A DNA stretch of 64,000 nt from an uncultured Methanosarcinales archaeon. Lineage in GTDB: Archaea; Nanobdellota; Nanobdellia; Woesearchaeales; GW2011-AR4. Position numbers and translations under genes: made by a program. Below, piece after piece: positions 2,368 to 51,935 of this stretch (the stretch's first letter is position 1; each line of letters begins with the position of its first letter). The notes below the pieces were generated by a model, which was not told the DNA's origin, made no database searches, and saw only the letters and a program-made list of their open reading frames with translations. The stretch is from NCBI GenBank assembly GCA_964438385.1, contig CAYTKI010000011.1, positions 48,739-112,738 on the forward strand. Reading direction: 5' to 3'.

Positions 2368-3789
2368 CTATGGCGTGAAAGAATGTATTAATCGTTGAGA
2401 AACAACTCCCCTATGCATCCTATACATCATATAGATGCAGAACAGATACAACAGCGGCCCAAAGAGGGAATAAGCAACTACTTCCCTCAAGAAAAGGTTC
2501 TCCGCCCCGGTAGTTCGCAAAAGACCGTGCCCAAGATAGAAGAAGAACGCGACAAAAGAGCCAAGAAAAGTGTATACTGCATAAAAATCAGAGCGGTGCA
2601 GGCAGAGGAAAGGGACAATCCACACCAGGTATTGGGTGCCAAAGCCGGAGAGCAGGACAATAAAAAAGAGCAAGGAGATAAGAATGCCATCAAGCGTCTT
2701 GATATTCCTATAGCGGCTAAAATAAAAAATCATCACAAGGAAAGTCATAATAATCATGAGTTTAGGCAGGTAAGCATGAAGCATCTCCTGGAAGGCAGTC
2801 CATCCAAAAAGAGTAGTAATATACTCAAGAGCGCGCGAATAGCCCCACGTGCCGAAAATGCCGCCGTAGCCAAAGACATTGGAGATTATCTGCGGAAGCG
2901 CTCCAGATAAATAGGGAGTAATCAATAGCCAGAAGGGCACTGATGCGATGAAAAGGAATAACACGGACCTATTGAAGCTTTTTTTCTGCAGCGCAAAAAA
3001 GAAGAGGGGAAACACCGTGACCTGCTTGACCGCAATGGAGCACCCATAGATCACATCCTCAAGGAGCGTGCGTTTCCTCTTGATTTCAGAGCGATAATAG
3101 AATAAAAGAAGCAGCGAGATTGCCGCCATGTCAAACTGCGCGCCCTGCACTGTGACCATGATGCTGATGGGATTGTAGAGGAACTTTGAAACAATAGTGA
3201 ACTGCTCTTTTGCACCAAGCCCTTCCCCTTGGGCAATGCGCAAAAGCAGGATGCCAACAAAGATATCTACTGAAATGAGGAAAAGCTTGACCAGGAAGGG
3301 AAATGCAAGTCCGGTGAAATCACCAAAGGAATCAATGGCGTGGAGGGTGTACGCCCATAAGGGAGAATAATTATAGCGGTCAGTTTCCGCATAGAAATTG
3401 GTGAATGTCCCTTTCTCCATGATGCCAGCGACAGTCTGGTAGGAATCCATGTCAAATGTCCCAAAGAATTGCAGGGCAAGGAAAGTTTTCAGGAGAAATG
3501 ATATGGCAAAAACAGCTACCAGTGCAATGCGGTAATTCTTCCCTGAAAAATAGAGTGTTCCATACACCATATAAAGCAAAAAGGAAAGGAGAATGGAAAA
3601 TGGCAAGGGGTAAGAATGACCGCCGAAAACAGCAAGCCAATAGACAAGTGGAGGCGTGGAAGCAAGAAAAAAAAGCATCACAAGTGATAAGTGCGCTGTA
3701 ACCCAAGTCTTGATTGAAAGGTACAGGCGGGCAGAATGATCGTGCTGCAATTCCTGCTGAAGTCGTTGGGTCATGCTCATGAGAACCAA
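2368..3789 (-). CDS. Polytopic GT-C-fold glycosyltransferase (DUF2029/GT87-like)
   Basis: 473 aa with ~11 predicted TM helices, typical of DUF2029-type mannosyl/arabinosyltransferases. It overlaps the upstream Dpm1-like GT2 gene by 13 nt. Confidence 0.5.
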   Translation of the reverse strand: MVLMSMTQRLQQELQHDHSARLYLSIKTWVTAHLSLVMLFFLASTPPLVYWLAVFGGHSYPLPFSILLSFLLYMVYGTLYFSGKNYRIALVAVFAISFLLKTFLALQFFGTFDMDSYQTVAGIMEKGTFTNFYAETDRYNYSPLWAYTLHAIDSFGDFTGLAFPFLVKLFLISVDIFVGILLLRIAQGEGLGAKEQFTIVSKFLYNPISIMVTVQGAQFDMAAISLLLLFYYRSEIKRKRTLLEDVIYGCSIAVKQVTVFPLFFFALQKKSFNRSVLFLFIASVPFWLLITPYLSGALPQIISNVFGYGGIFGTWGYSRALEYITTLFGWTAFQEMLHAYLPKLMIIMTFLVMIFYFSRYRNIKTLDGILISLLFFIVLLSGFGTQYLVWIVPFLCLHRSDFYAVYTFLGSFVAFFFYLGHGLLRTTGAENLFLREVVAYSLFGPLLYLFCIYMMYRMHRGVVSQRLIHSFTP

Positions 3790-4517
3790 AAGGAGAACCG
3801 CATCCTAAGGATATTGAGGAGGTAATTCGTCACGGTCTGAAAAATCCTAACTTTACTCTTCTTCCTCTCGATCCACACAACCGGTTGCTCAAAGATGTGA
3901 ATGCCCAACCTTTCAGCAAGGAGCAAAAGCTCGGTGTCAAAAAACCATTCCTGGTCCTTTGTCAATGGCAGGAGCCGCAATGCAAGATCTGTTCGTAACG
4001 CCTTGAAGCCGCACTGCGCATCAGTAAATTTTGGGGCGAATAAAACCTTGAGGAGAAAATTGTAGCCCGTGGAAAGTATCTGCCGTTTCATTCCGCGCTC
4101 AACTTCCGCCCCTTTCATGAGCCGCGAACCAACCGCAAGATCATATCCGCGTATGGCTATGGCTTCCACAATCTGCTTGAAATGGGAGAGATTAGTCGAG
4201 AGATCAACATCCATGTACGAGACGATGTCAGCAGAACTTTCCATCCATGCCTTCCGTAGTGCCCTGCCGCGGCCCTTCTGGTAGAGGTGAATGAATGTTA
4301 TGCGTTTGTTTTGTTTCGAAAGCCTTTTTGCGATCTGTAGCGAATGGTCAGTTGACGCGTTGTTCGCGATGATGATGCGATAGGCATAGGGAAAATCCTT
4401 TCGCAGGTAGGCGTCCAGGTCCAGGATATTCTGCTCAAGCTCGGCTTCCTCATTGTAGACGGGGATGACGATGTCAACTGTGGGTTTTCGCTGCGTATTT
4501 TTTTTGTCTTTTGCCAT
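3777..4517 (-). CDS. GT2 polyprenyl-phosphate glycosyltransferase (Dpm1/GtrB-like)
   Basis: VDIVIPVYNEE...IIANNASTD...DVD...GSR...QCGFKA are GT2 DxD/Q(R)xxRW-type motifs. ~246 aa soluble catalytic domain. Confidence 0.8.
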   Translation of the reverse strand: MAKDKKNTQRKPTVDIVIPVYNEEAELEQNILDLDAYLRKDFPYAYRIIIANNASTDHSLQIAKRLSKQNKRITFIHLYQKGRGRALRKAWMESSADIVSYMDVDLSTNLSHFKQIVEAIAIRGYDLAVGSRLMKGAEVERGMKRQILSTGYNFLLKVLFAPKFTDAQCGFKALRTDLALRLLPLTKDQEWFFDTELLLLAERLGIHIFEQPVVWIERKKSKVRIFQTVTNYLLNILRMRFSFWFS

Positions 4518-4539
4518 TGCTCATGCCTTTTGCGATTGC

Positions 4540-5934: not shown

Positions 5935-6924
5935 TTATTTCCTAAATCCTTCAGGATGCGTCGTGTGCCACTTCCACGCGCTCCCGATGATTGACTTGAT
6001 AGAGGGGTATTTCGGCTTCCAGCCAAGGTCCTTTTTTATCTTCGCGGAAGAGGCGACGGAAATGGCAACATCCCCTTCCCTTCTTGGCAATAGTTCCCTC
6101 GGGATTTTTCTCTTCGCCTCCCGCTCGGCAGCAGAGATGACTTCAAGAACAGAATGCCCTTTCTCCTTTCCAAGATTGAAGCAGTCAGTGGCATGGCCTT
6201 CCTGTAATGCTTTTAGCGCGAGGATGTGCGCATCCGCAAGGTCGCAGACATGGACATAATCTCGGATTGCAGTGCCATCTTTTGTGGGATAATCGGTGCC
6301 AAATATCCTGATGCAGGGCTTTTTGCCCATCGCGGCAAAGATGACATTGGGGATAAGGTGCGTCTCCGGATGGTGGTCTTCCCCAATCGAGGCAGTAGGG
6401 TGCGCGCCTGCCGCGTTAAAGTAACGCAGTGAGATGGATTTTAGTTGGGATACCTTACCCGTCTGCAAAAGCACCTTCTCAAAGGCGGCCTTTGTCTCTC
6501 CATAAGGATTTTCCGGGGCAATCTGGTTTTTTTCAGTCAGTGGCATCTTTTGCCCGCTGCCATAAACGACAGACGAAGAGGAATAGATAATCCGCTTGAC
6601 ATTGTTTTTGGACATCGCCAAAAGGAGGTTTTTCCCATACTCCACATTGGTTTTCCAATAGCGCCTAGGAAAGCGCACCGACTCCTCGACCTGAATCAAC
6701 GCGGCCATGTGAATGACTGCATTAACGCGATGGCGCTTAATCACATCACTTATCAGTTTCGCATCGCGCAGATCCCCCTTAACAAATACGGCAACGGGAT
6801 CGATCGCCTCAAGATGGCCAAAGGAAAGATTGTCAAGCACAACAACATCCTGCTTTCTCTCGATGAGTAGCTTCACCACATGGCTGCCTACATACCCGGC
6901 CCCGCCGGTCACAAGGATTGTCAT
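5935..6924 (-). CDS. galE: UDP-glucose 4-epimerase
   Basis: ILVTGGAGYVGSHVV...YSSSSVVYG...YGETKAAFE. Extended-SDR GalE signature (TGGAGYIG, YxxxK). Start taken at the Met preceding TILVTGG. Confidence 0.85.
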   Translation of the reverse strand: MTILVTGGAGYVGSHVVKLLIERKQDVVVLDNLSFGHLEAIDPVAVFVKGDLRDAKLISDVIKRHRVNAVIHMAALIQVEESVRFPRRYWKTNVEYGKNLLLAMSKNNVKRIIYSSSSVVYGSGQKMPLTEKNQIAPENPYGETKAAFEKVLLQTGKVSQLKSISLRYFNAAGAHPTASIGEDHHPETHLIPNVIFAAMGKKPCIRIFGTDYPTKDGTAIRDYVHVCDLADAHILALKALQEGHATDCFNLGKEKGHSVLEVISAAEREAKRKIPRELLPRREGDVAISVASSAKIKKDLGWKPKYPSIKSIIGSAWKWHTTHPEGFRK

Positions 6925-7062
6925 AGAGATACTTTGCCGTGGGCATTTCTTAAATGTTTCTTTTGGGGGTGAAGGTGTATTGGGTAGTGACATAGGTCAT
7001 TACCCAGCAAAAGAGCCGGGGTGAACGAAAGACTTTTAAGCGTCGGAGGATGCTCCTGCCGC

Positions 7063-8331
7063 ATGAAAACAGTCGCTATCATCGGCCTTGGATACGTCGG
7101 GCTTCCCCTTGCATGCCTCTGCGCAGAGAAGGGGCTGAAGGTTTATGGCGTTGAGATTGATGAAAAGAAGCGCGAACTCATCTCGCAGGGCATAAGTCCA
7201 ATAGACGATTCCAAGCTCACAGAGCAGCTCAAAAAGCTCAAAGGGAAAATACTGACGACAGGCGATGCCGCAAATGCCGCAAAAAACTCTGATGTCGTAA
7301 TCGTCTGCGTCCCAACGCCGGTGGACAAGGGCCATGCTCCAGATCTTATGCCGCTTATCTCAGCGTGCAAAGCCCTTGAGAAGGGCATCCATGATGGGAT
7401 TGCCATAGTCATTGAATCCACCATCTTCCCGGGAACCGTGGAGGAGATTGTCCTTCCCATTCTGAAAAAATCAGGCAGAAAATTCTTCCTCGGCCACTGC
7501 CCCGAGCGCATTGATCCGGGAAATAAAAAATACACAGTGCGCAACCTGCCAAGGGTAGTTGGAGGCATTGGGAAGGAATCAACAAAGAAGATAGCCGAAT
7601 TCTACCGCTCAATCATCGAAGCGGAAATCCTTGAATTGGGTTCGGTCAAGGCCGCGGAAGCCACAAAGATAATGGAGAACACATTTCGCGATGTCAATAT
7701 CGCCTTTGTCAATGAGATGGCGAAAAGTTTTGACAAGGTGGGAATTGACATCACAGAAGTCATCAGGGGCGCATCCACAAAGCCATTTGGATTTCTCCCC
7801 CACTATCCAGGGGCAGGAGTGGGCGGCCATTGCATCGCAGTTGATCCTTATTACCTCATCGCAAAGGCAAAGGAGATGGGATTCATCCATGATTTTCTCA
7901 TTCTTGCAAGAAAGATTAACGAAGGTATGCCTGGCTACACCATCCATCTGCTCGAAGCGCAGCTCAGTAAATTGGGAAAGCGTATCAGCGGCGCAAAAGT
8001 CGGGGTCCTTGGGCTCGCCTACAAGGGAAATGTTGATGATACAAGAGAGAGCCCGGCATGGGAGATAATCCATATCCTAAAAGGGAAAGGCGCAAAGGTT
8101 GAGGTTTTTGACCCGCACGTCCCTGGCGAATCAACGGCAAAATCATTCGATGAGCTCCTGGATAAGGCGGAGTATCTGGTGCTGGTGACCAACCATAATG
8201 AGTTCAGGGAAATGGATTATGGCCTTTTGAAAAAGAAAGGAATTAAAATCATAATCGATGGCAGAAACTGCCTAGACAGGGAAAAAATCACAAAGCTCGG
8301 CATCCTCTATCACGGCATCGGAAGGGCATAA
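7063..8331 (+). CDS. Nucleotide-sugar 6-dehydrogenase (UDP-glucose / UDP-ManNAc dehydrogenase family)
   Basis: KTVAIIGLGYVGLPLA, GHCIAVDPYY, GLAYKGNVDDTRESPA. Canonical UDPGDH N-terminal, central and C-terminal motifs. Confidence 0.85.
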   Translation: MKTVAIIGLGYVGLPLACLCAEKGLKVYGVEIDEKKRELISQGISPIDDSKLTEQLKKLKGKILTTGDAANAAKNSDVVIVCVPTPVDKGHAPDLMPLISACKALEKGIHDGIAIVIESTIFPGTVEEIVLPILKKSGRKFFLGHCPERIDPGNKKYTVRNLPRVVGGIGKESTKKIAEFYRSIIEAEILELGSVKAAEATKIMENTFRDVNIAFVNEMAKSFDKVGIDITEVIRGASTKPFGFLPHYPGAGVGGHCIAVDPYYLIAKAKEMGFIHDFLILARKINEGMPGYTIHLLEAQLSKLGKRISGAKVGVLGLAYKGNVDDTRESPAWEIIHILKGKGAKVEVFDPHVPGESTAKSFDELLDKAEYLVLVTNHNEFREMDYGLLKKKGIKIIIDGRNCLDREKITKLGILYHGIGRA

Positions 8332-8390: not shown

Positions 8391-9806
8391 CTACACAATT
8401 CCTTTGATATCCTCTTTTTTTATTCCGCCTATCAAATAGAGTGCGCCGAAATAGATGAGGGCCGCAATTGGAAGCACGATAAAGAGATTCATGTCCTTTC
8501 CAAGGAAATAGATGAAGGCGCCCATAGCGGCTGACGCAAGGATCGGTTTGGCGCACATCCGCACGATGCCAACGCCATAGTTTTCCTTAAGCGCATAGTA
8601 ATAGAGCAGGCAGAAATTGACAAATGCGGTGATCACAGTCGCTGCCGATGCCCCGATGTAGCTGAACTTCGGGATAAGGAGTGCATTGAGTGCCACATTG
8701 ATGAAAAGGCATATTCCTGTTGTGTAGGCGAAGATGTGCGGCTTCTTGATGGCATTGAGAAACCACCCGACCATGTTGCCAAGGAAGAGAAAAACCGTAG
8801 TCCAGATGAGGATTTGGAGCACAATGATGGACTGCGTGAATCCTTCCTCGTACATAAAGAGAATTATCTTATCCGCAATCAGCGTCGCTCCAACCATCAG
8901 GGGAAAGCTCACAGCAGCCATCGCATACATCCCTTTCTCAAGAACCATCCGAAGAAGCTTCTTTGACATCTTGGCGTGCATCTCGGCCATGATGGGAAAG
9001 AGGACAAAGACAAGTATCCAGGGAATTTTTGATATCACATTGATGAGCTTATACGCCGCGTTGTAGAATCCGCTCGCCTCATAGCCCTTCATGAGGGTGA
9101 GCATGATGGTGTCCACCTGGAAATAGATGATGATAAACACGCTCGAGAGCCAAAACGTCCAGGATGTCTTGAGCATGGTCTTCCACATCGGCACATCAAT
9201 CTTAAGGGAGAAATGGACATCAAGCTTTCTGAGGAGATAAAGGGAGTAAAGCGTTGCAATGGCATTTGATATCACAAGCACAATCATGAAGGGCATAAGC
9301 CCATAGCCCGCAAGGAGCACAGAGATCCCAATCGCAAAGGCGATAGCCCGCTCGGCGATCCGAACAGCGGCCTCGTATTTCATCTGCTGGAATGAGGAGA
9401 AGGTGTTTCGCGCGACGTAGGAATAGTTCTGGAAGAAAAGCGAGATTGCGGCAAGGAAAATAATGAGGTTCACAGTCGGTCCTCGCGCCATGAAGAGAAG
9501 TGAGAGCATCGGGAGCCCCAAGGTGAGAAGGCAGAAGATCAGCTTGAGAGAGGCATACTGCCCAATATACTTATTCGCGTTCGCCCGATCCTTTGAGACG
9601 CTTGTGACATAAAAATAGGAGATCCCAAAATCATAGGCAAAGGTGAAGAATCCTGCGAAAGCAAACGCAAAGGAGTAGATGCCCAGCTGCTCCGCTCCGA
9701 GGTTTCTCGCAAGAAGGACTATCAAGAAATATGAAAGGATGTTGGAAATGACTTCTGCGAACGTCACAAAGCTGATGTTCTTCACGATATGCTTCTTAAG
9801 GGACAT
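8391..9806 (-). CDS. Polysaccharide flippase (Wzx/MOP superfamily)
   Basis: 471 aa, ~12-14 TM helices. Polysacc_synt-like N-terminus (ISNILSYFLIVLLARNLGAEQLGIYSFAFAFAG). Confidence 0.8.
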   Translation of the reverse strand: MSLKKHIVKNISFVTFAEVISNILSYFLIVLLARNLGAEQLGIYSFAFAFAGFFTFAYDFGISYFYVTSVSKDRANANKYIGQYASLKLIFCLLTLGLPMLSLLFMARGPTVNLIIFLAAISLFFQNYSYVARNTFSSFQQMKYEAAVRIAERAIAFAIGISVLLAGYGLMPFMIVLVISNAIATLYSLYLLRKLDVHFSLKIDVPMWKTMLKTSWTFWLSSVFIIIYFQVDTIMLTLMKGYEASGFYNAAYKLINVISKIPWILVFVLFPIMAEMHAKMSKKLLRMVLEKGMYAMAAVSFPLMVGATLIADKIILFMYEEGFTQSIIVLQILIWTTVFLFLGNMVGWFLNAIKKPHIFAYTTGICLFINVALNALLIPKFSYIGASAATVITAFVNFCLLYYYALKENYGVGIVRMCAKPILASAAMGAFIYFLGKDMNLFIVLPIAALIYFGALYLIGGIKKEDIKGIV

Positions 9807-12427: not shown

Positions 12428-12532
12428 GTCCTATGGTCCCCCAATTCCGTTTAAATAAGTTTGCTCGGGAAAGCCGCCATTCAGTTGCCAATCACTCTCA
12501 TTCTTGCCTGGCAACCAACACCCGCTCCCCAA

Positions 12533-13669: not shown

Positions 13670-13901
13670 TGCCTTTCCTTTCCTCCCTTAAAATTCCTTA
13701 CGCCACTCTGCTCTTGCCTAAAAATTGTTTATAAAAGTATCACGCGATGAGGCTGTTGCACTATCTGGATATGCCCAAAAGGAAGAAAACACCAATCCAG
13801 AAGTTTTGGTTCAGTAAAGGAATGCGCGTCCTGTTGCGCGCCACCATTGTGCGAGTGCGCAGTACAAGCGAGATAAAAAATAAACCTATACATAGAGTAA
13901 A

Positions 13902-43604: not shown

Positions 43605-44409
43605 GTATCCCTTTTCCTTTCATGATGGCAAGGATGGCACCCGGCTTTCCTTTCTGCGCATGCTGTTCCGCTTTCCACACAAGGATTTTTGTGTTTTTGA
43701 AGGAGGTGAATGCTCCGGGATAGGGTTTGGTGAGAGCCCGCACAAGGTTGAAAATCTCTCGGGAAGGGGACTTCCAGTTGATTTTTCCATCCTCCGGCTT
43801 TCTGCGTGGGAGATAGGTGGCATCTTCCTTGTTCTGTTTTATTCTTGGCGCAGTGTTTTTTGCGAGGAGTGGAAGGTTCTTATGCAGCATCTCAACCGCC
43901 AAAAAATCCGCCTTATCAAAGAGGGTATTGACATCGTCCCTATCATTGATGGGAAAATTCCGCTGCTCGATGATATCGCCCTCATCCACTTTTGCCGTCA
44001 GGTAAAAGAGCGACACTCCCCATTTCTTCTCATCCTTAATCAGTGCCCAGTTAATGGAGGCGGCTCCCTGGTTTTTGGGAAGAAAAGAGCAGTGCACGCC
44101 AATGGTTCCAAGGCGAGGAATATTCAGGATGCTAAAAGGTATAATCTGAGACCATCCGGACTCAAGAATGATATCTGGCTTCAGTTCTTTCACCCTCTGG
44201 ATAATTGTGGGATTAGAGATTTTATCAAGCTTGTAGAGGGGGATGCCATGGGAAGCGCAGAAATCATCAAGCAGGACATGGCGCGATTTGGCAACTGCAT
44301 ACTTGTCTTCAAGGGTAAAAATGGAGGTAATGCGGCAATCCTTATGGCGCACAATCTCCTCCATGAAGCGTTTTGTTGAGAGTGTGCACCCAATGACGAC
44401 AATGTCCAT
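43480..44409 (-). CDS. Formyltransferase-fold enzyme (Fmt/ArnA-N-like sugar N-formyl/acyl-transferase)
   Basis: MDIVVIGCT...GIPLY...PDIILESGWSQIIP...GTIGVHCSFLPKNQGAASINWALI. Formyl_trans_N motifs (catalytic HxSLLPxxxG region). Start placed at the internal Met. Confidence 0.7.
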   Translation of the reverse strand: MDIVVIGCTLSTKRFMEEIVRHKDCRITSIFTLEDKYAVAKSRHVLLDDFCASHGIPLYKLDKISNPTIIQRVKELKPDIILESGWSQIIPFSILNIPRLGTIGVHCSFLPKNQGAASINWALIKDEKKWGVSLFYLTAKVDEGDIIEQRNFPINDRDDVNTLFDKADFLAVEMLHKNLPLLAKNTAPRIKQNKEDATYLPRRKPEDGKINWKSPSREIFNLVRALTKPYPGAFTSFKNTKILVWKAEQHAQKGKPGAILAIMKGKGILAGTGEGSILIIRAQTEQGVEVWADDLAPELHLKEGDTLGA

Positions 44410-44588
44410 GAGCCCTGGAGAGTTCGCTGTTTTAAAAGAGTTGTGGAGAGAATGTTTTTGTGTAAAAATCTCCTGCATAAAAAGTGGGTGGGTATGAGGT
44501 GGGTGAGGTTTAGGATTTATCTTACAAAGCTTCCTTCTACGCAAAACATTTAAAGCTTCTTCAGTAGCCATTCGCCAGGGGAATCATC

Positions 44589-45005: not shown

Positions 45006-45709
45006 AGCAGGCAGTCATCCTTGGGATAAGCGGGGATCTTGGAAAAGCGATAGCGCGGATGCTGTTGAAAAAGGGGTATCGTATTCTGGGGACCTCCCAC
45101 ACCCATCAAGCGGAGGAGTTTGCAGGTAATGGGAATGTCGAGGTCGTTTCCCTCGACCTTTCCGACGCAAACCAGGTGGAAAAATTTTGCAGCCAGATTG
45201 GGAAGCTGGAGGGCATTGATTTCATGGTGAATACCATAGGAAGCTACACCATGGGCCGCTTTGAGCAGATCCCATTTGAGACATTCCAAAAAGATTTCAA
45301 CCTCAACGTGCTGCTTTATATTCAGGTGCTTCAGAAGGCATTTCCAAAATTCAGAAAAGATGCAAATCTCATCTTCATATTGACGGAGATGGTAGTTGGT
45401 GACCCGAGCTATTTTCTCACGCCTTACGTATCATCAAAGTACGCCCTCCTTGGGCTTATGAGGGCGCTCGCAGGAGAGCTGAAGCAGCGTGGCATTCGAG
45501 TAAATGGAGTCTCTCCGGGGATGATGGATACAAGATTCATAGCTTCAGTTCCGCGCATCGTAAAGGAGCAATACCTGAGAAATTCCCCCTTGGGTAAGTT
45601 TGTGGATCCAAAAGAAGTTGCCAATGTTATTGAGAATATCGTGGATGATCCTTCCATGAACGGAGAAAATATTCCTCTCTTGGGAAAGAAAATGCCGCAG
45701 GGAAAATGA
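45002..45709 (+). CDS. Short-chain dehydrogenase/reductase (SDR)
   Basis: AVILGISGDLGKAIA (TGxxxGxG-like), YVSSKYAL (YxxxK). 4-nt overlap with the MaoC gene. Confidence 0.75.
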   Translation: MKQAVILGISGDLGKAIARMLLKKGYRILGTSHTHQAEEFAGNGNVEVVSLDLSDANQVEKFCSQIGKLEGIDFMVNTIGSYTMGRFEQIPFETFQKDFNLNVLLYIQVLQKAFPKFRKDANLIFILTEMVVGDPSYFLTPYVSSKYALLGLMRALAGELKQRGIRVNGVSPGMMDTRFIASVPRIVKEQYLRNSPLGKFVDPKEVANVIENIVDDPSMNGENIPLLGKKMPQGK

Positions 45710-46041
45710 GGATTGGAATAGATATCGAGGAAGTGAAGCGTTTTGTGCTCAGTAGAAATCACCCTTTTATCAGGCATGCATTCACAAAAAAAGAAATGAG
45801 GTATGCGTTTTCAAGGAAAAATCCTGCAATGCACCTGTGCGGGTTCTTCTGCGCAAAGGAGGCGCTCATAAAGGCCCTCTGCCCTGCTTCGCTTCTTCTC
45901 AGGGAGATAGAGATTACGCACGGAAGGAATGATGAACCAAAGATGAGCATTCTCAAGAAAAGTTTAAAAATTCGGAAGGGGATTGATGTAAGCATCTCCC
46001 ACACGGAAAAATACGCAGTGGCAGTTGTGATGGGGAAGTGA
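45706..46041 (+). CDS. acpS: Holo-ACP synthase (4'-phosphopantetheinyl transferase, AcpS type)
   Basis: 111 aa. MRIGIDIEEVKRF...FTKKEMRY...FCAKEALIKAL...VSISHTEKYAVAVV. Classic AcpS blocks. Confidence 0.75.
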   Translation: MRIGIDIEEVKRFVLSRNHPFIRHAFTKKEMRYAFSRKNPAMHLCGFFCAKEALIKALCPASLLLREIEITHGRNDEPKMSILKKSLKIRKGIDVSISHTEKYAVAVVMGK

Positions 46042-46054
46042 GTGGGGAAGTCTC

Positions 46055-47758
46055 ATGAAAAAGATTAAGGTCGCGATTCTTTGCTCATACACCATCAACA
46101 ACCTTGTTCCTCCGCTAAAGGACGTTCTCTTGGAAAAGGGGTTTGATCCGGAGATCAGGTTTGGCGGGTATAACCAGTTTATCCAGGAACTGATGGATAA
46201 GTCCTCCTGGCTCGCAGATTTTAAGCCGGAAATCATTGTCGTTGCCCTCAGCGCAAGAACCTATCTTCAGGATCTTGAATATTATCTGTTGGATCTTTCA
46301 GAAACCGAGATAAATGGTCTCATTGATGAAAAATCCTCTTTTCTTCTCAGCGCAATTCAGGCATACCGGGAGCCGGCAAAGATTATCCTCACCACTTTAG
46401 ACTACCCCAATTACTCTCCGCTCGGCATAATGGACCTCATTTCTGACGTTGGGATGAAACATGGTATCGACCGATTCAATTATGCGCTCGTGTCATTCGC
46501 AAGGAAAAATCGCCAAGTTATCCTCATTGATTTTGATAAAGTGCTCTCTGGCATGGGAAAGGTGGAAGCGACCGACGAGAAGATGTATTATCTGGGAAAG
46601 CTTCTCCTACGCAATAATGCGGCAGCCGCCTTTGCTTGGGAGATTGCCGGCTGCATAGCGGCAACCTTTGGCCAGAGGAAGAAATGTATCGTTGTGGATC
46701 TTGATAATACCTTATGGGGAGGGGTGATTGGGGAGGATGGGGCAAATGGGATTGTGATTGGCGATGATGGGGTGGGCAGCGTCTATCGCGACATCCAAAG
46801 AATCCTTTTGAATTGGAAAAAATCCGGCGTGCTCCTTGCCATCGCCTCCAAGAATAACCCTGACGACGCCATCTCCGCGTTCAGGGAGAATGGGGCAATG
46901 GTGCTTAAGGAAGAGGATTTTGTGGCGACAAGGATCTGCTGGGAGAGCAAGTCAAAGGGGATCGCCTCCATCTCAGAGGAGCTCAATATCGGACTTGAGA
47001 GCTTTGTCTTTCTCGATGACAACCCTGCCGAGCGGCTGGAGGTGAGGACGCACCTTCCGATGGTTGAGGTCATTGATGTCCCGCAGGATATTGCCCTTCT
47101 TCCGGAAATGCTCAAGGGGCTCCGGCTCTTTTGGGCGCTCGCGCTCACAGAGGAGGATAAGCAGCGCCATGGGCTGTATATGCAGGAAAAAAGCAGGGCG
47201 GTGCTGAAGGAGAAAGTGTCTGTTGATGATTATCTTAGGGAGCTTGGCACATCAATAGTGGTGAAGAAAAATGATCTCTCCTCGCTTGAGCGGATAACGC
47301 AGCTCATCAACAAGACCAACCAATTCAATCTGCGCACCCAGCGCTACTCTCAGGAGCAGGTAAAAGCGCTTATGGAGTCAAAAAACAGCATGGTACTCTC
47401 GCTCCATGCTGCGGACAAATTCGGAGATCTTGGTCTCACCGGAATTATCATCATCAATAGGCAGAAAGAGAATGAATATTTTCTGGAAGGCCTTCTCATG
47501 AGCTGCAGGATTCTGGGGAGAAATATTGAGCGCCAGTTCTTCATCGAAGCGATAAAAGTGCTGAAAGGGGTGGACCCCTTGGCCATCCTGCATGCGGAAT
47601 ACGTCCCGACACAAAAGAACGGCATGATAAAGGATTTTTGCGCTCAGATGGGTTTTAAGATGATGGGGGAAGGGGATGGCAAACTATCATATTCCCTATC
47701 GCTTGGACAGTATCAGATTCACGATGTGCAGTCAATTGAGGTGAAACACTATGGATAA
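46055..47758 (+). CDS. FkbH-like HAD-superfamily (subfamily IIIC) enzyme; predicted (glyceryl-)acyl loader onto a carrier protein
   Basis: 567 aa. Central HAD core CIVVDLDNTLWGGVIGEDG...ASKNN...FLDDNP with a C-terminal FkbH-like region. Immediately upstream of an ACP gene, overlapping it by 8 nt. Confidence 0.65.
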   Translation: MKKIKVAILCSYTINNLVPPLKDVLLEKGFDPEIRFGGYNQFIQELMDKSSWLADFKPEIIVVALSARTYLQDLEYYLLDLSETEINGLIDEKSSFLLSAIQAYREPAKIILTTLDYPNYSPLGIMDLISDVGMKHGIDRFNYALVSFARKNRQVILIDFDKVLSGMGKVEATDEKMYYLGKLLLRNNAAAAFAWEIAGCIAATFGQRKKCIVVDLDNTLWGGVIGEDGANGIVIGDDGVGSVYRDIQRILLNWKKSGVLLAIASKNNPDDAISAFRENGAMVLKEEDFVATRICWESKSKGIASISEELNIGLESFVFLDDNPAERLEVRTHLPMVEVIDVPQDIALLPEMLKGLRLFWALALTEEDKQRHGLYMQEKSRAVLKEKVSVDDYLRELGTSIVVKKNDLSSLERITQLINKTNQFNLRTQRYSQEQVKALMESKNSMVLSLHAADKFGDLGLTGIIIINRQKENEYFLEGLLMSCRILGRNIERQFFIEAIKVLKGVDPLAILHAEYVPTQKNGMIKDFCAQMGFKMMGEGDGKLSYSLSLGQYQIHDVQSIEVKHYG

Positions 47759-47999
47759 GAACCTGGAAGAAAATGTAAGAAAGACAGTGGAAACAGTCAT
47801 GGGTGTTGATATCGGGGCTATGGACAGTGAAACTAAGTTTAGTAGCATCTCCGCATGGGATTCATTCAACAACCTCATGCTCATTTCCAAGTTTGAGGAG
47901 GAGTACAATGTGCGCTTCACCGCAGTAGAGATCGAGCAGACGCAGACAGTGGGCGATCTGCTTATCTTGATGGAGAGAAAAGTCGAAAAAGCGCAATAA
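47751..47999 (+). CDS. Acyl carrier protein (copy 2)
   Basis: 82 aa. SAWDSFNNLMLISKFEEEY is a DSL-type phosphopantetheine attachment site plus helix II. Homologous to the 15881..16099 ORF. Confidence 0.6.
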   Translation: MDKNLEENVRKTVETVMGVDIGAMDSETKFSSISAWDSFNNLMLISKFEEEYNVRFTAVEIEQTQTVGDLLILMERKVEKAQ

Positions 48000-48069: not shown

Positions 48070-50151
48070 TTAGCCCTTTGAAACAGCAAGCACGACCATG
48101 CCCTGGTTCTGGAATGCCGGGGTGAATTTTTGGCTGGAGATGAGCTCCTGCACTTTCATGTTTGTTGCGTTCATGCCGAATTTGCGCGCGGCCTGCCCAT
48201 CAATGACAACGTATTCATAGTTGTGCTGCGCAGCCCAATCGTGGATTTCCTGTGCTGATAAATTAAAGCCGTTTTTCTCAAAATCCTTTATCTCAGGGCA
48301 CCATGCGCAGGTATATTTGTCAAAGGCAAGTAGAAGCGCATCATTGGAGAACGAAAAGATCGCGGAATTTGTAGGCAATGCCTGGTGCAGCCACAGGTAG
48401 CCGGATATCTCTTCATTTGACGTCCAGAAACCCCCTGGCCCCCATTGCGCCGTATTGACGGCATATTTCTGGACAAATGATGTCTGGATGATCCCATAGC
48501 CAAGCAGTGCGATAAGAATGCTCGAGCCAACAAGCGCGATAGCGGGGTTTGAGATGCTGCGAATTGATGATCGGGCTAAAGTCAAAAGTGTAAAAATACC
48601 TTCCCCGGCAAGAATCGCGACGGGAATTGCAAGCAGCATCCACGCTCGGAAGGGGGAGAGCCGAAGAGCAAAGGGGGAGGCGTTCACGGCGTAAAAGCTG
48701 AAGGCAAGCCAGCCAAGGGAAAGCAAAAGGTGCGTATCGCCAAAATCCTTGTTCTTCCAGCATGAGAATGCGAGCGTGACGAGGAGGAAAAGCATGATTC
48801 CAAGGAAGAATATCAAAAAGAGCTGGTCAGTGAAGAATTCCATGAAAGGGATGCTTCCCGGCTGAAGTTTTGCAAATGTTCTTTTTTCAGGGTATTTGAC
48901 ATAGGACTTCCACAGGATGAGGATGATAAAAAGGAAGAGTGCGGGAAAAACAAGCAGAATTGGCTTCGCGTGCTGGGTTATTTCCGTTCTGTATTTGAAA
49001 AAAAGAACTGTCAGTGAAAACGTGAGAAGAAGAGTGATTACGAGCCCAAGCCCGGTGGGATTATTGATGAGGTTTTGACTCTGCGCAAAGAGAAAATCTG
49101 AAAGGTAATATTGGCGATCCGCAGTGCCGCTTACTGAAATCGCATCAGAGGCATTGGAGAGCCCAAGTCCTGCGAGCGTGCCGGAAAGTCCGTGGCGGAC
49201 TAGTGCAGGAAGCCACCACAGCAAAAAGGAAAGGAATATTCCTAGTAACGCCGCTGCATATTCATTCCAAAGAAACCTGCGCGCAGCAAGTGTCCTGATG
49301 CCTATCCAGATAATGAGAAAAAATCCAAAGTAGGCGCTGTGGCTCGGGGAGGTGGTGAGCGTCGCAAAAATGAGAACTGCCGCACTTATGCCCCACCACT
49401 TATCTTCCCGCATGCGCTCAAGGCAGTAGAATGAAGTGAAGAAAAGAGGCATGGTGAGCGCAATCGCCCAGATGAAATGGCTCATGAACGCAGGCAGGGC
49501 AAAGAGTGCAAACGCGGAAAAAAATGCTTTCTTCGAGCTTGAGGTGAGCTGGCGCACAAGGAAATAGAAGATGATGATGTAGAGGGATATAATGAGCGCG
49601 TTGAAAAACTTAAGCGTCCAGTAGAGGGAGTCATTGGTCTGGTGTATTACTCCCATCACCATATCATACGCGGGTGGATAAGGGTCCATATAGCGAAGCG
49701 ACGCTCCCTCTGGGCGAAACAGTGACTTCTCCAATGAGACATATTTTGCACCGACCGCATGTCCCCAGGGATCGTCATCTTCAAGGTAGGGATAGGCAAA
49801 CGCGCCCTTGTGGTACATAAAAAAGGTGAGGCTAAAGAGAATAAGCATTCCGATGATGTAAGGATTGATGTTGAAGGAAATTGGAACTGCAAGGAGTTTC
49901 TTTGTTTTCCATAATCTGAATCCGAATGCCATGATGATTCCAGTTAATGTGATGGTAAGGAAAATTCGGTAATCGATTGGAACGTGCAGCAGATTGAGTA
50001 GGTATCCTAGCGAGACAAGTCCCCCCAGGCCGATTCCCAGGCGCATAAGATGCCGCTCAAGAAAGCTCTCAGAGTTCTTTGCGGAAAATGTCAGCAGATA
50101 GCCAAGGCCGTAGCAGAGCGCAAGGAAGACGATGATGCTGAGGGGATACAT
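48070..50151 (-). CDS. Polytopic GT-C-fold glycosyltransferase (PMT/ArnT/AglB-like)
   Basis: 693 aa, >14 TM helices, acidic first-loop motif YPYLEDDDPWGHA. Confidence 0.5.
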   Translation of the reverse strand: MYPLSIIVFLALCYGLGYLLTFSAKNSESFLERHLMRLGIGLGGLVSLGYLLNLLHVPIDYRIFLTITLTGIIMAFGFRLWKTKKLLAVPISFNINPYIIGMLILFSLTFFMYHKGAFAYPYLEDDDPWGHAVGAKYVSLEKSLFRPEGASLRYMDPYPPAYDMVMGVIHQTNDSLYWTLKFFNALIISLYIIIFYFLVRQLTSSSKKAFFSAFALFALPAFMSHFIWAIALTMPLFFTSFYCLERMREDKWWGISAAVLIFATLTTSPSHSAYFGFFLIIWIGIRTLAARRFLWNEYAAALLGIFLSFLLWWLPALVRHGLSGTLAGLGLSNASDAISVSGTADRQYYLSDFLFAQSQNLINNPTGLGLVITLLLTFSLTVLFFKYRTEITQHAKPILLVFPALFLFIILILWKSYVKYPEKRTFAKLQPGSIPFMEFFTDQLFLIFFLGIMLFLLVTLAFSCWKNKDFGDTHLLLSLGWLAFSFYAVNASPFALRLSPFRAWMLLAIPVAILAGEGIFTLLTLARSSIRSISNPAIALVGSSILIALLGYGIIQTSFVQKYAVNTAQWGPGGFWTSNEEISGYLWLHQALPTNSAIFSFSNDALLLAFDKYTCAWCPEIKDFEKNGFNLSAQEIHDWAAQHNYEYVVIDGQAARKFGMNATNMKVQELISSQKFTPAFQNQGMVVLAVSKG

Positions 50152-50207: not shown

Positions 50208-50930
50208 TTATTTTTTCTTCAGGATGAAAACAAAAGTTGGCGTGAAGGGGGTGAGCAGCTTGAGGAGCGGAAATGGTACTAATTTAATTGCTTTCTGGAG
50301 ATAGGGATAGGCATCGACGCCATAGCGCGAGGGGTATTTCATGAGCCGGGGGGTGATATCAACCATATCAAAATGAGGGCGTGCAATCTTTTTAAGGGAA
50401 AGGTAGGATAGAGAATATATGTCCCAGTTTTCTTTTTTCCTTGCCCATCTGATGTAATGCGCTGCAATTTTTGCCGGGAGCCAGGTGATGAAAGGGAGCT
50501 TGTAGTGCGGATCCATCACCCACCACCGATTCGGAGTCGCAAGATACAGGATCCCTTTTTTTTTAAGCACGCGATGAATTTCGGAGAGATGGGTTTTTTG
50601 GTTTGGGATATGTTCAAGGACATGGTTGGAGAGCGCGATGTCAAAAGTATTATTTTTAAAGGGGAGCTTTTCGCTTGGGATTTTCCTGAATTCATAGCCC
50701 TTTTTTGAGGTGCGCTCATCATACAAATCGACGCTCACCGCCTTCTTAGTATGCCTTGCTATCCTTGCGATAATATGGCCGGAGCCGGTTCCGATGTCTA
50801 GCAGCAGGGAGGTTGTGAGATTCTTGTGCTCGCGAAGGACGCTGAGTATTTTCTGCGCTTTTTTATCCCTGCTCGCCCCATCGAGCCGTGCGTGAGAGGT
50901 ATCTGATTTTATCGCCTTTTGTAGTGCCAT
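50208..50930 (-). CDS. Class I SAM-dependent methyltransferase
   Basis: LLLDIGTGSGHI (motif I), DIALSNHVLEHI. Confidence 0.75.
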   Translation of the reverse strand: MALQKAIKSDTSHARLDGASRDKKAQKILSVLREHKNLTTSLLLDIGTGSGHIIARIARHTKKAVSVDLYDERTSKKGYEFRKIPSEKLPFKNNTFDIALSNHVLEHIPNQKTHLSEIHRVLKKKGILYLATPNRWWVMDPHYKLPFITWLPAKIAAHYIRWARKKENWDIYSLSYLSLKKIARPHFDMVDITPRLMKYPSRYGVDAYPYLQKAIKLVPFPLLKLLTPFTPTFVFILKKK

Positions 50931-51044
50931 TGCACCATTTGCATTGTTGTTATTCTTAAAGATTTGCTGAATTGTGTAAAAATCTTCTTTGGAATATTTT
51001 CTTCTGGTAGAAATATATTTAAACCATCCTCCATTGGTCTCCCT

Positions 51045-51935
51045 ATGCTCATCATCATCACCATTCCCGCCTACAATGAAGGCAAGACCCTAGGTGCGAT
51101 CATCCGCGAGATTAAAAGGGTGATGGATGGATCTTCCTATGGCTACAAGTACAAGGTGCTGGTCGTGGATGACGGATCGCAGGACGACACCGCAGAGGTT
51201 GCAAGAAAAGCGGGCGCAGTTGTGCAGTCCCATCCCAGGAATTGCGGGCTTGCTGAGACATTCAGAACAGAAGTGAAAAAGAGTGTTGATCTGGGAGCGG
51301 ATATCATCGTCCATATTGATGCTGACGGCCAATACCTCCCAAAAGAAATTCCCCTTCTTATCAAGGAAGTACAGGAGGGAAATGACCTTGTCCTGGGGAG
51401 CAGGTTCAAGGGGACAATTGAGCACATGTCCCTGACGAAAAGATGGGGTAATAAGGCGTTCTCAAGGGTAATATCTCATATCACCGGCGTTCAGATTTCA
51501 GATGGGCAGACCGGGTTTCGCGCATTTACAAAGGAAGTGGCAAAGCGGGTGGATATCATCTCAAGCCACACCTACACCCAGGAGCAGATTATCAAGGCAG
51601 TCCGTGAGAAATTCAGGGTGAAGGAAGTCCCTATATATTTTGCCAGGCGCAAGGACAAGAGCAGGCTCATCAGTAATCCCTTTGAATACGCGCTCAAGGC
51701 ATGGATAAACATCCTGCGTATCTACCGCGATTACGAGCCGTTGAGGTTTTTTGGCATGAGTGGCGGCTTGATTTTCTGCCTCGGTTTTCTTCTGGGGCTC
51801 TATCTGGTGTACATCCAGTTCTTCGGTGAGGGGGTAAATCGCCATTTCGGACTCATGATGATGGATATCCTCATCCTCAGTATAGGTCTGCAGCTCATCA
51901 TTTTCGGCTTCCTTGCAGATATGCAAAAAAAGTGA
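51045..51935 (+). CDS. GT2 polyprenyl-phosphate glycosyltransferase (Dpm1-like) with C-terminal TM helices, copy 3
   Basis: IIITIPAYNEG...VVDDGSQDDT...HIDADGQY...GSRF, then two C-terminal TM helices. Start set at the in-frame ATG at 51045, which is preceded by ATATATTTAAA. Confidence 0.8.
   Translation: MLIIITIPAYNEGKTLGAIIREIKRVMDGSSYGYKYKVLVVDDGSQDDTAEVARKAGAVVQSHPRNCGLAETFRTEVKKSVDLGADIIVHIDADGQYLPKEIPLLIKEVQEGNDLVLGSRFKGTIEHMSLTKRWGNKAFSRVISHITGVQISDGQTGFRAFTKEVAKRVDIISSHTYTQEQIIKAVREKFRVKEVPIYFARRKDKSRLISNPFEYALKAWINILRIYRDYEPLRFFGMSGGLIFCLGFLLGLYLVYIQFFGEGVNRHFGLMMMDILILSIGLQLIIFGFLADMQKK

Follow-up and report, generated by a model that had tools for sequence, protein, structure and literature searches.

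The 64,000-nucleotide stretch of DNA analyzed here (the window) probably holds a surface-glycan cluster with several parallel routes of multi-component transmembrane glycosylation in a DPANN archaeon. Within this cluster, which exceeds 50 kb, three GT2 enzymes (G1, G2, and G3) most likely charge a membrane lipid with single sugars, and six large membrane enzymes (A to F) are predicted to transfer the lipid-borne sugars to surface molecules on the cell exterior. The first-pass annotation had described three Dpm1-like GT2s and six large GT-Cs in one island; all nine open reading frames were confirmed, as three GT2s and six GT-Cs, and the repeated logic of a Dpm1-like GT2 with an extracytoplasmic GT-C, also proposed there, appears to fit the evidence. 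This scheme of donor synthase and extracytoplasmic transferase is already well known, and most of the protein families here are unclassified. The host can be taken as a Woesearchaeota-like DPANN archaeon on the basis of the named relatives, which are Candidatus Woesearchaeota and Nanoarchaeota, and not of a marker gene in the window. Because these relatives are DPANN archaea, the expected carrier is dolichyl phosphate, and the wording "periplasmic" and "lipoglycan" used at first should give way to the outer face of the archaeal membrane, with AglD/AglR/AglS as the comparator.

The six large proteins, each with roughly 9-14 predicted transmembrane (TM) helices, could each be assigned to GT-C on at least one line of evidence, and they appear to fall into six mutually very divergent families, in every one of which conserved acidic residues were found in the first outer loop. 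Four of them (A to D) were themselves unmatched by Pfam and NCBIfam models. F (547 residues; 24418..26061, forward strand) belongs to the PMT_2 family (4e-13, above the curated cut-off) and carries the first-loop motif GGDDARY (residue 45), with no GT2 adjoining it. Transporter, ligase, and STT3 identities were rejected for all six. A scan of the window for further GT-C candidates found none beyond A to F, and the only other polytopic proteins were a Wzx-type flippase and an MBOAT protein (22826..24277).

A (470 residues; 2368..3780, reverse strand) represents a remote GT87/PIG-M-like clade; its start at 3780 follows the public gene call, whereas residue numbers below refer to a 473-residue version. 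A itself matched no Pfam or NCBIfam model, and the label "DUF2029-like" holds only remotely, through GT87 matches in 6 of 38 relatives, among which PIG-U (four), PIG-M (three), Alg6_Alg8 (three), and PMT_2 (one) were also matched. The first-loop Asp (D113; motif FDMDSY) is kept in 97% of the relatives. It lies 101-109 residues in, after three TM helices, compared with about 28 residues and one helix in most remote relatives, and A carries two extra N-terminal TM helices. Its neighbor G1 (246 residues; 3777..4517, reverse strand) is a GT2 with a DxD motif (MDVD; PF00535, 2e-25), and A is translationally coupled to it through an ATGA overlap. The closest solved structure to G1 was 5mlz (6.8e-14), followed by ArnC and GtrB, and its NCBIfam matches were mixed generic GT2 families, PgaC and PgfS ranking above Dol-P-hexose transferase. 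A G1-like GT2 also lies near an A homologue in locus L010; no GT2 was seen by the A homologue of L011, but that contig ends at A.

B (860 residues; 30682..33264, forward strand) represents a very rare, unclassified GT-C family. Its N terminus forms an additional helical bundle (about 148 residues); the GT-C core starts near residue 149 and leads to an outside domain of alpha/beta and beta-sandwich type and a last TM helix. The bundle, pointed out in the first-pass annotation, was modeled confidently and is conserved in all 15 aligned relatives, but such an extension is not peculiar to B: the GT2-paired proteins A, B, and C all have extra N-terminal helices ahead of the canonical first helix, and D, E, and F do not. 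The suggested YfhO identity of B was not supported: B had no Pfam or NCBIfam match at a threshold as loose as E<=10, its 18 relatives had none either, and the likeness to YfhO is confined to the architecture; AftD was the second-best fold match, with 558 residues aligned. It seems highly improbable that any of the GT-C-fold proteins serves as a non-catalytic scaffold or lipid-binding subunit, like PIG-U in the GPI transamidase. In favor of such a role, A relatives match PIG-U as well as catalytic families, and, in a low-confidence alignment of B and D, the invariant Asp of D faces an invariant Asn (N179) of B. However, first-outer-loop acidic residues are strongly conserved in each family, in this loop of B, E211 is invariant, position 217 (D217) is always acidic, and D204 is kept in 87%, and the tight pairing with donor-making GT2s favors catalysis.

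G2 (254 residues; 29900..30664, forward strand), a GT2 matching PF00535 at 3e-20, ends 17 nt upstream of B; inspection of its sequence found no literal DxD motif. Its NCBIfam matches were AglJ (2.8e-23), PpgS (1.6e-12), and Dol-P-hexose transferase (3.6e-12), and its closest solved relative was 5mlz (4.2e-6). A GT2 lies less than 1 kb from the B homologue in five of seven loci; the G2-B pairing is kept in L002, L004, and L007, and also in L006 with an 800-nt gap. In L002, a 78% identical G2 orthologue precedes a 61% identical B orthologue. Upstream of the pair are genes for a dTDP-6-deoxyhexose (26751..29930), namely RmlC-like (26751..27338, reverse strand; assigned solely by 26% identity, E 1e-8, to the RmlC of L002) and, by Pfam, RmlB (27398..28357), RmlD (28330..29178), and RmlA (29175..29930), all three on the forward strand. 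The order RmlB-D-A-GT2-B recurs in L002, and heptose-type genes occupy the place of the Rml genes in L004; this variation in the adjoining nucleotide-sugar operon fits a modular donor-plus-transferase unit, for which the sugar could here be, for example, a 6-deoxyhexose.

C (693 residues; 48070..50151, reverse strand) was placed in a divergent PMT_2-like family from its relatives and an hhalign comparison with D (98.7% probability; C117-392 on D15-294, in profile columns). C itself had no Pfam match, and PMT_2 was matched by 7 of 42 relatives, the named ones being Woesearchaeota and Nanoarchaeota, so that the earlier term "PMT-like" is right in a remote sense. An N-terminal extension of about 95 residues precedes the first-loop motif LEDDDPWGH (E124-D127, H131), whose acidic residues are conserved. 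All GT2s had been described as adjacent to or overlapping a GT-C, which holds for G1/A and G2/B but not for G3/C: a SAM methyltransferase gene (50208..50930, reverse strand; Methyltransf_11, 2e-18) in an operon with C separates the two, and G3 (296 residues; 51045..51935, forward strand) runs away from this operon, making C and G3 divergent neighbors. The divergent arrangement recurs in L008, where the methyltransferase slot is also occupied, and in L009, with G3 orthologues 69-70% and C orthologues 46-50% identical. The ATG at 51045 proposed as the G3 start stands, with orthologues aligning from residue 1 there. G3 has a DAD motif and two C-terminal TM helices and matched PF00535 and, at 4.7e-44, the AglJ model (positions 3-282 of 293); its solved relatives were ArnC (1.3e-19 over residues 4-292), 5mlz (3e-15), and GtrB (1.9e-8). 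G3 resembles GtrB, ArnC, and AglJ along its whole length, and its alignments to ArnC and to the AglJ model take in both C-terminal helices. Beyond G3 lie a methyltransferase with two TM helices (51913..52581, forward strand; Pfam), an unannotated 369-residue protein (52593..53702, reverse strand) with only a weak Polysacc_deac_1 match (3.6e-3), and a GT4 (53699..54907, reverse strand; Pfam). In L009, these genes recur together with the GT2 as a four-gene unit, GT4-u350-MTase-GT2, that adjoins C, with identities of 58%, 52%, 51%, and 69%, respectively.

Among solved structures, all three GT2s have polyprenyl-phosphate glycosyltransferases (the archaeal Dol-P-Man synthase 5mlz, ArnC, and GtrB) as their closest relatives, and G1, G2, and G3 are most likely synthases that load one sugar on what we infer to be dolichyl phosphate. 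Alternatively, they could be ordinary cytoplasmic enzymes extending a lipid-linked oligosaccharide, like AglG/I/E and PglI, with the proximity of GT-C genes incidental and the GT-C donors coming from elsewhere, which we consider unlikely. It would accord with the lack of TM helices in G1 and G2, the generic top NCBIfam matches of G1, and the co-occurrence of a Wzx flippase with GT4 and GT9 enzymes, a typical oligosaccharide-assembly set. Moreover, every NCBIfam match of the GT2s, including PpgS for G2 and G3 (4e-28 for the latter), lies far below the equivalog cut-off, and the best model for both G2 and G3, AglJ, carries the NCBIfam name of an S-layer glycoprotein N-glycosyltransferase. However, those closest solved relatives are monosaccharide synthases, G3 shares its two C-terminal helices with GtrB and ArnC, and AglJ itself reportedly loads the first hexose onto dolichyl phosphate, as credited to Kaminski et al. 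2010. The specific GT2/GT-C pairs also persist in distant contigs while the remaining neighbors vary, the GT2 being the better conserved member (G3 70% and G2 78% identical).

Under the donor-synthase reading, nucleotide sugars would be made in the cytoplasm by cluster-encoded enzymes, the products including dTDP-6-deoxyhexose (RmlA/B/D and RmlC-like), UDP-glucuronate (UDP-sugar dehydrogenase), and UDP-ManNAc (2-epimerase). G1, G2, and G3, as Dpm1/GtrB-type enzymes, would each attach a single sugar to dolichyl phosphate on the inner face of the membrane, and the charged lipid would be flipped across the membrane. The GT-Cs, in their presumed topology, would then use the conserved first-outer-loop acidic residue to pass the sugar to outside acceptors, likely glycans carried by protein or lipid, or else surface proteins themselves, and the glycan could be tailored by the five methyltransferases, the MBOAT, and the SGNH acyltransferase-like genes of the cluster. 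The sole recognizable flippase family in the window is of the Wzx/AglR type (8391..9806, reverse strand; Polysacc_synt, 7e-37, about 11 TM helices). A GtrA-family flippase was sought across the window without a match, so that the "three-component Gtr" label is incomplete. As neither a priming phosphoglycosyltransferase nor AglB is present in the window either, the acceptor pathway is not visible there. With three GT2s for six GT-Cs, at least some GT-Cs must take donors from elsewhere or use another kind of donor.

The closest known system is AglD/AglR/AglS of Haloferax. In Haloferax volcanii, a GT2 loads one sugar onto a separate dolichyl phosphate at the cytoplasmic face, and, after flipping, the polytopic AglS adds the sugar outside to a glycan already attached; the Wzx-type AglR is involved, and methyltransferase and UDP-sugar dehydrogenase helpers belong to the pathway (PMC3871713). 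The window is likewise archaeal, with a Wzx-type gene and both kinds of helper, but it holds three GT2s, two of them without TM helices, and GT-Cs from six families in place of one set, and its pairs are physically linked in a DPANN host, whereas aglD lies outside the agl cluster. The likeness is one of scheme, with no claim of sequence-level orthology. Firmicutes also have several GT-A/GT-C pairs per genome, with some GT-Cs lacking a Pfam domain (PMC8035078), and bacterial systems include GtrA/GtrB/Gtr(type), CsbB/GtcA/YfhO, and the pairs YkcBC, YkoST, and CsdAB/CD/EF; a TM-less GT-A can act with a small membrane partner, as in GacI/GacJ (PMC8035078, PMC5836110). These systems share with the window a GT2 polyprenyl-P-sugar synthase gene beside a GT-C, several pairs, and Pfam-less GT-Cs, and they differ in their undecaprenyl-P carrier, where dolichyl-P would be expected here, in GtrA/GtcA, a family not found in the window, and in teichoic acids or LPS as acceptors, which are ruled out here; extra N-terminal helices such as those of A, B, and C are not described for their enzymes. 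Among mycobacterial proteins, PpgS (Rv3631) is short and TM-less like G2 and of the same length class, B fold-matches AftD, and A relatives match GT87, the PimE family (the GT-Cs compared being AftA, AftD, and PimE), but all scores are under the curated cut-offs and the arabinogalactan/PIM context is absent from the archaeal window.

The remaining two GT-Cs lie in an Epimerase-E-MTase-D-Sm operon on the reverse strand, which begins with a UDP-GlcNAc 2-epimerase (40001..41098; Epimerase_2, 4e-110). E (772 residues; 37673..39991) matched PTPS_related (2.6e-7; 30.0 bits against a cut-off of 26.4) and not YfhO, as had been suggested; it shares with B only the YfhO-like layout of TM core, outside domain, and final TM helix. 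E57 is acidic in 89% of its relatives, and the E and D families align over the GT-C core (95.7% probability, E 9.5e-9). A SAM methyltransferase (36789..37712; Methyltransf_23, 3e-29) between E and D keeps this place in L002 and L007 and in several loci of the D family. An E-like gene lies immediately upstream of D in 32 of 52 loci, and the gene directly upstream of E is epimerase-like in 14 of 25 and a Dpm1-like GT2 in six. D (547 residues; 35114..36757), which itself matched no Pfam or NCBIfam model, has an ArnT/AglB-like fold, and its first outer loop holds the invariant D40. This fold, the large outside domain of B, the shortage of donor synthases, and the absence of AglB from the window would be compatible with some GT-Cs, especially D or B, being unconventional enzymes of OST-like or polymerase-like type, with dolichyl-diphosphate-linked glycans as donors. 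We regard this as quite improbable, given that WWDYG, or even WWD, was found in none of the six, no STT3 Pfam match was obtained, the top matches are equally ArnT, ALG12, AftD, and Pmt4, users of polyprenyl-P-monosaccharide donors, and the sister family of D, C, shows tight linkage with a GT2 of the GtrB/ArnC type.

Within the preferred transferase scheme, D would work with Sm, a 118-residue protein (34777..35133, reverse strand) whose gene overlaps the D stop codon. Sm is the obligate partner gene of D, a homologue directly following D in all 69 assessable loci. It has four hydrophobic helices by eye and three by hydropathy scan, and its members (118-145 residues) share the motif PGY...F.ER..G...SYY.GL.GLN.KYH. 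Sm had no match to the GtrA, SMR, or EamA families, in the latter two respects differing from ArnE/F of the Arn pathway (ArnC, ArnT, ArnE/F), from which the window also departs in that the sugar aminotransferase is missing, lipid A is absent in archaea, and G3 is linked to C, not D. DUF1616 was weakly matched by 7 of 20 Sm members and DUF6541 by five. Sm weakly resembles the N-terminal extensions of B and C, and the extra N-terminal helices of A, B, and C may do the job of Sm in fused form.

All nine ORFs named in a first-pass annotation of this DNA, made from sequence alone, were found to be present in the window. They encode six large polytopic proteins, A (2368..3789, minus strand, 470 aa; the public gene call begins at ATG 3780), B (30682..33264, plus strand, 860 aa), C (48070..50151, minus strand, 693 aa), D (35114..36757, minus strand, 547 aa), E (37673..39991, minus strand, 772 aa), and F (24418..26061, plus strand, 547 aa), and three GT2 proteins, G1 (3777..4517, minus strand, 246 aa), G2 (29900..30664, plus strand, 254 aa), and G3 (51045..51935, plus strand, 296 aa). 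The ATG at 51045 originally chosen as the start of G3 was also appropriate, as orthologues align from residue 1 there. A simple hydropathy scan indicated about 9–14 TM helices in each of A–F, and besides these the window has just two polytopic proteins, a Wzx-type flippase (8391..9806) and an MBOAT protein (22826..24277), so that the count of six GT-C candidates is complete. The glycan-biosynthesis cluster, which occupies the window up to about 54.9 kb, also encodes a sugar C-methyltransferase (1..1100), a UDP-sugar dehydrogenase, several SDR epimerases/dehydratases, the Wzx flippase, three SGNH/AlgX-like proteins together with the MBOAT protein, one GT9 and two GT4 glycosyltransferases, RmlB/D/A with a weak RmlC-like gene, a UDP-GlcNAc 2-epimerase, a formyltransferase, an AcpS-FkbH-ACP trio, and five SAM methyltransferases, and neither AglB nor a priming phosphoglycosyltransferase was present in the window. 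Because GC content was uniform along the window, and no tRNA genes or Rfam matches that could serve as a taxonomic or mobile-element marker were found in it, the proposed island is a gene cluster and not demonstrably a mobile element.

All six large proteins were assigned to the GT-C superfamily by one or more kinds of evidence, among them superposition of a predicted polytopic core on solved GT-C enzymes and conserved acidic residues in the predicted first extracytoplasmic loop, after core TM1. The loop acids were D113 of A, in FDMDSY and 97% conserved among relatives; E211 of B, which is invariant, along with the D217 position, acidic in all, and D204, present in 87%; E124–D127 of C, in the essentially invariant motif LEDDDPWGH; D40 of D; E57 of E, acidic in 89% of the family; and the D47/D48 motif of F, which was seen in a single sequence only. 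Direct family recognition was restricted to F, which matched PMT_2 (PF13231; ArnT/GT83- and PMT-like) at 4e-13 with 50.3 bits against a gathering score of 26.1, and E, which matched PTPS_related at 30.0 bits against a cut-off of 26.4, because A, B, C, and D had no match in Pfam (E≤10) or NCBIfam (E≤1). We take both matched families to be filed in the Pfam GT-C clan. The family profiles of A–D gave no real matches to all PDB sequences, and an all-against-all BLASTP comparison of A–F gave no usable similarity, indicating that they are not recent paralogues. Comparing a profile with a single sequence (C with F, C with D) was not informative, and links between families needed profile-profile comparison. 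By this comparison, C was linked to D with a probability of 98.7% (E 2.6e-16) and E to D over the N-terminal core (95.7%, E 9.5e-9), B and E were found to have a C-terminal beta-rich domain and the last TM helix in common (94.7%), and B was colinear with D from residue 161, if weakly (E 2e-4).

These results revise the family names that had been given earlier. The label DUF2029-like for A holds remotely, in that GT87/DUF2029 (PF09594) was matched by 6 of 38 aligned relatives (best 1.8e-8), but not for A itself; the same relatives also matched PIG-U (4), PIG-M (3), Alg6_Alg8 (3), and PMT_2 (1). The relatives number 42 in total, five of them close and the others being proteins of about 370 aa. 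By its relatives, A is a predicted GT-C of the general GT87/PIG-M/PIG-U/Alg6_Alg8 branch and not a demonstrable GT87 member. The label PMT-like for C is likewise valid at a distance, with PMT_2 matched by 7 of 42 sampled sequences among its 592 relatives (best 1.5e-7) but not by C itself; for D, 3 of 50 relatives matched PMT_2 and D did not. The name YfhO had to be withdrawn for both B, which has no Pfam match at E≤10, YfhO (PF09586) included, and E, for which PTPS_related is the sole Pfam match; B and E resemble YfhO in layout alone. None of the 18 relatives of B carried any Pfam domain. A–F contain neither WWD nor W[WYF]D[YWF]G, and none of them matched the STT3 HMM, indicating that none of them is a canonical STT3/AglB. 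The alternative that the large proteins would be transporters or O-antigen polymerases/ligases (Wzy/WaaL) was not borne out, as none of A–F had a family or fold match of that kind. Exact copies of the proteins were present on a 120-kb NCBI contig and in a metagenome run. The named relatives of C were all from Candidatus Woesearchaeota or Nanoarchaeota. The B family, which is extremely rare, was seen in two Woesearchaeota MAGs and one MAG labelled Methanosarcinales. On this basis, the source is most likely a Woesearchaeota-like DPANN archaeon.

G1, G2, and G3 all matched PF00535, and the closest group for their GT2 domain was that of the polyprenyl-phosphate glycosyltransferases (Dpm1/GtrB/ArnC/AglJ). 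Against the sequences of all solved structures, G3 matched ArnC over residues 4–292 (1.3e-19), the Pyrococcus Dol-P-Man synthase 5mlz (3e-15), and GtrB (1.9e-8), the best match of G1 was 5mlz (6.8e-14), followed by ArnC and GtrB, and that of G2 was also 5mlz (4.2e-6), followed by ArnC. In NCBIfam, where every score was far under the equivalog cut-off, G3 matched AglJ over nearly its full length (4.7e-44) as well as Dol-P-hexose transferase, PpgS, and ArnC, G2 matched AglJ, PpgS, and Dol-P-hexose transferase, and G1 was ambiguous. The designation Dpm1/GtrB-like is thus well supported for G3, reasonably so for G2, and moderately so for G1. The DxD motif is MDVD in G1 and IDAD in G3, and G2 has HGDAQ, with no literal DxD. 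The C-terminal membrane anchor of GtrB and ArnC consists of two TM helices. Two such helices were found in G3 by the hydropathy scan, and none in G1 and G2, which in this respect are like the short PpgS and halobacterial Dol-P-hexose transferase models. A bacterial precedent for a TM-less GT-A protein with a small membrane partner is GacI/GacJ (PMC8035078).

The proposed pairing of each GT2 with a GT-C was examined with respect to gene arrangement and its conservation in other contigs. G1 and A overlap at an ATGA junction and G2 and B are separated by 17 nt, as had been described, but G3 is neither adjacent to nor overlapping C; C shares a minus-strand operon with a methyltransferase gene, and G3 is transcribed divergently from this operon. 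In contig L002, the order RmlB-RmlD-RmlA-GT2-B is kept, with GT2 78% and B 61% identical; the GT2 directly adjoins the B homologue in L004 and L007 and lies 800 nt off in L006, and none was found beside it in L003 and L005. An orthologue of G3 (69–70% identical) is divergent from that of C (46–50% identical) in both L008 and L009; in L009, the unit of GT4, unannotated protein, and methyltransferase genes behind G3 is likewise retained. L010 has the order G1-like GT2, radical SAM gene, and A, and in L011 the contig ends at A with no GT2 seen upstream. This conservation of gene neighbourhood supports a functional linkage of G1-A, G2-B, and G3-C. Furthermore, the nucleotide-sugar genes beside the pairs differ, being of the Rml type in the window and L002 and of a heptose type in L004 and L011, so that one transferase family apparently can be joined to more than one donor pathway, a pattern to be expected of a modular donor-plus-transferase unit. 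In the latter two (L004 3326..7517 and L011 789..4974), the heptose-type genes, which encode an SIS isomerase, a sugar kinase, an HAD phosphatase, and a nucleotidyltransferase, stand beside a B-type GT-C in L004 and an A-type GT-C in L011.

The extra N-terminal bundle that had been noticed in B is real, with helices at residues 5–134 preceding a helix at 149–169 that aligns with TM1 of D. Its pLDDT was 73–94 in all blocks, and it contains the invariant residues K22, N48, Y69, and K86. This feature is not peculiar to B, as A and C have extensions too. In the A clade, the conserved Asp is 101–109 residues in, past three TM helices, compared with about 28 residues and one helix in most of the remote relatives, and in C the conserved acidic motif is about 123 residues in, past 3–4 helices, compared with about 44 residues and one helix in the homologous D family. 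In D, E, and F, the canonical TM1 is the first helix. Thus, the GT-Cs with an extension are exactly the three that are paired with a GT2. The three-component Gtr arrangement suggested in the first-pass annotation is incomplete, since no GtrA match was found among ORFs of at least 150 aa and selected small ORFs; a fused GtrA as the extension of B was also considered, and it is unsupported by sequence, B residues 1–150 having no Pfam match.

A small protein of 118 aa that belongs to no known family, Sm (34777..35133, minus strand), is encoded next to D, overlapping its stop codon. Four hydrophobic helices can be recognized in Sm by eye and three at the hydropathy-scan threshold. Among 80 metagenome loci of the D family (L012–L091), 69 had enough sequence to judge, and a Sm homologue directly follows D in every one of them (69/69). 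D is immediately preceded by an E-like GT-C (32 of 52 loci), and E in turn by a UDP-GlcNAc 2-epimerase-like gene (14 of 25 loci) or a Dpm1-like GT2 (6 of 25); in L002 and L007, a GT2 occupies this slot before E, where the window has the epimerase. The conserved module can be described as [UDP-GlcNAc 2-epimerase or Dpm1-like GT2]-E-(methyltransferase)-D-Sm (window 37673..41098 and 34777..37712; L002, L007, and L012–L091), of which the order seen in the window, with the epimerase, is the common form. GT9-like genes were also observed near 13 of the 80 D-family loci.

The Sm family, with 66 distinct sequences and a strong motif, was compared as a profile with the N-terminal extensions. It aligned with that of C (C17–66 to Sm54–103, P 2.8e-4) and the same part of that of B (B80–122 to Sm63–106, P 1.3–2.6e-3); in 27 TM-rich control windows taken from the GT-C cores, P was no better than 0.017. 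The direct alignment of B77–139 to C23–84 (P 0.017) was exactly in the register implied by both Sm alignments. No similarity of the Sm profile to the A extension was found. Members of the Sm family showed weak matches to DUF6541, a family also matched by relatives of D and C, and to DUF1616, for neither of which was anything functional found in the literature; GtrA, SMR, and EamA were unmatched by the family in Pfam and PDB, and its match to MerF in this search was meaningless. Although the alignment probabilities are modest, these results are suggestive of a Sm-like module that may occur as a separate protein alongside D and as a fusion in B and C. Simple gene fission does not explain Sm, because the gene order is D and then Sm, whereas the fused form is N-terminal. 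A tentative and rather speculative possibility is that these archaeal GT-Cs may need an extra small membrane module, supplied by Sm for D, by the N-terminal fusion in B and C, and perhaps independently in A, which would deliver the lipid-linked sugar or dock the GT2. The Sm-type module could be the missing dolichyl-P-sugar flippase and pass the donor on to the transferase directly, or else a membrane dock for TM-less GT2 partners. Candidate roles of Sm itself are those of a flippase, an anchor, or a subunit. To our knowledge, such a module is undescribed for GT-C enzymes.

With respect to mechanism, the carrier lipid should be dolichyl phosphate rather than undecaprenyl phosphate, judging from what is known of archaeal glycosylation and from the source being most likely a DPANN archaeon. 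Nucleotide sugars would be made by the cluster-encoded enzymes, and G1, G2, and G3 would each charge dolichyl phosphate with a single sugar at the inner membrane face. The lipid-sugar would then be flipped, and the partner GT-C, through the acidic residue of its first loop, would transfer the sugar to an outside acceptor, for which S-layer or other surface proteins, protein-bound glycans, and glycolipids are candidates; methyl and acyl tailoring would come last. From its operon, the G2-B pair is predicted to handle a dTDP-derived 6-deoxyhexose. As D, E, and F have no dedicated GT2 in the window, their donors would come from one of G1–G3 or elsewhere.

The cluster follows the same logic as Haloferax AglD/AglR/AglS (PMC3871713) and the bacterial multi-component transmembrane glycosylation systems (PMC8035078, PMC5836110), and several GT-A/GT-C pairs per genome, with GT-Cs lacking a Pfam domain, are already documented in bacteria (PMC8035078, PMC5836110). 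Because this logic is already known, the cluster represents a further set of members of a known scheme; current understanding is not overturned, and the scheme is extended to new families and a new lineage. Beyond it go the four GT-C families outside curated libraries, the B family for its extreme rarity, the pairing of D with Sm, which is obligate, and the extra N-terminal helices. The original observation is thus confirmed and its interpretation partly supported. DPANN archaea are tiny, mostly host-dependent cells, whose surface is probably what touches the host; we know of no experimental work on how this surface is glycosylated, and nothing functional was found in the literature on GT-Cs of DPANN/Woesearchaeota. 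One such archaeon devotes more than 50 kb to surface-sugar chemistry and uses the lipid-phosphate-sugar and GT-C scheme several times over in the cluster, and four of its GT-C families are invisible to Pfam and NCBIfam and will therefore be missed by annotation pipelines. The D-Sm pair and the extensions of A, B, and C are concrete candidates for the poorly defined step of flipping or delivering lipid-linked sugars.

Several other features of the cluster were observed. In addition to G3, which is ArnC-like, and D, whose fold is ArnT-like, pieces reminiscent of the Arn (aminoarabinose) pathway include a formyltransferase with N- and C-terminal domains (43480..44571), a 369-aa protein with a weak polysaccharide-deacetylase match (52593..53702) that is conserved beside G3 in L009, a UDP-sugar dehydrogenase (7021..8331), and a decarboxylase-like SDR (5935..6993). 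A full Arn-like pathway was rejected, since the window contains no aminotransferase and the gene to which G3 is linked is C rather than the formyltransferase gene. A complete 2-oxoacid dehydrogenase set (E2, E1 beta, E1 alpha, and E3) is encoded inside the glycan cluster at 11348..17432, a stretch that also holds a weak ACP-like 72-aa ORF (15881..16099), and E1 alpha and beta genes adjoin GT2/A-type genes in an unrelated contig too (L010 6751..8771). Instead of serving central metabolism, this set may contribute to making an acyl or keto-acid-derived sugar substituent. An AcpS-type phosphopantetheinyl transferase (45706..46041), an FkbH-like protein (46055..47758), and an acyl carrier protein (47751..47999) are encoded in a row just upstream of C, an arrangement suggestive of a carrier-protein-dependent unit that would supply an unusual glycan substituent. 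In the stretch 12533..24277, SGNH/AlgX-like proteins (12533, 17568, and 19694) and a GT9 heptosyltransferase-like protein (18589..19677) are encoded, and the MBOAT gene stands alongside one for a DUF1574-like protein (21852..22829); this toolkit of an archaeal genome is bacterial in style, with O-acylation and LPS-core-like components. The region 33469..34370, which separates the B module from the D module, holds a Pol-beta-type nucleotidyltransferase-like ORF (199 aa, weak match) followed by an overlapping 101-aa ORF; the two may represent an MNT/HEPN-type toxin-antitoxin pair. Downstream of the glycan genes (56672..64000), there is an acyl-metabolism cluster with genes for a FabA-like dehydratase, two thiolase-like proteins, a DUF362 protein, an SDR, a family III CoA-transferase, and a methyltransferase-SDR fusion that extends past the window end.
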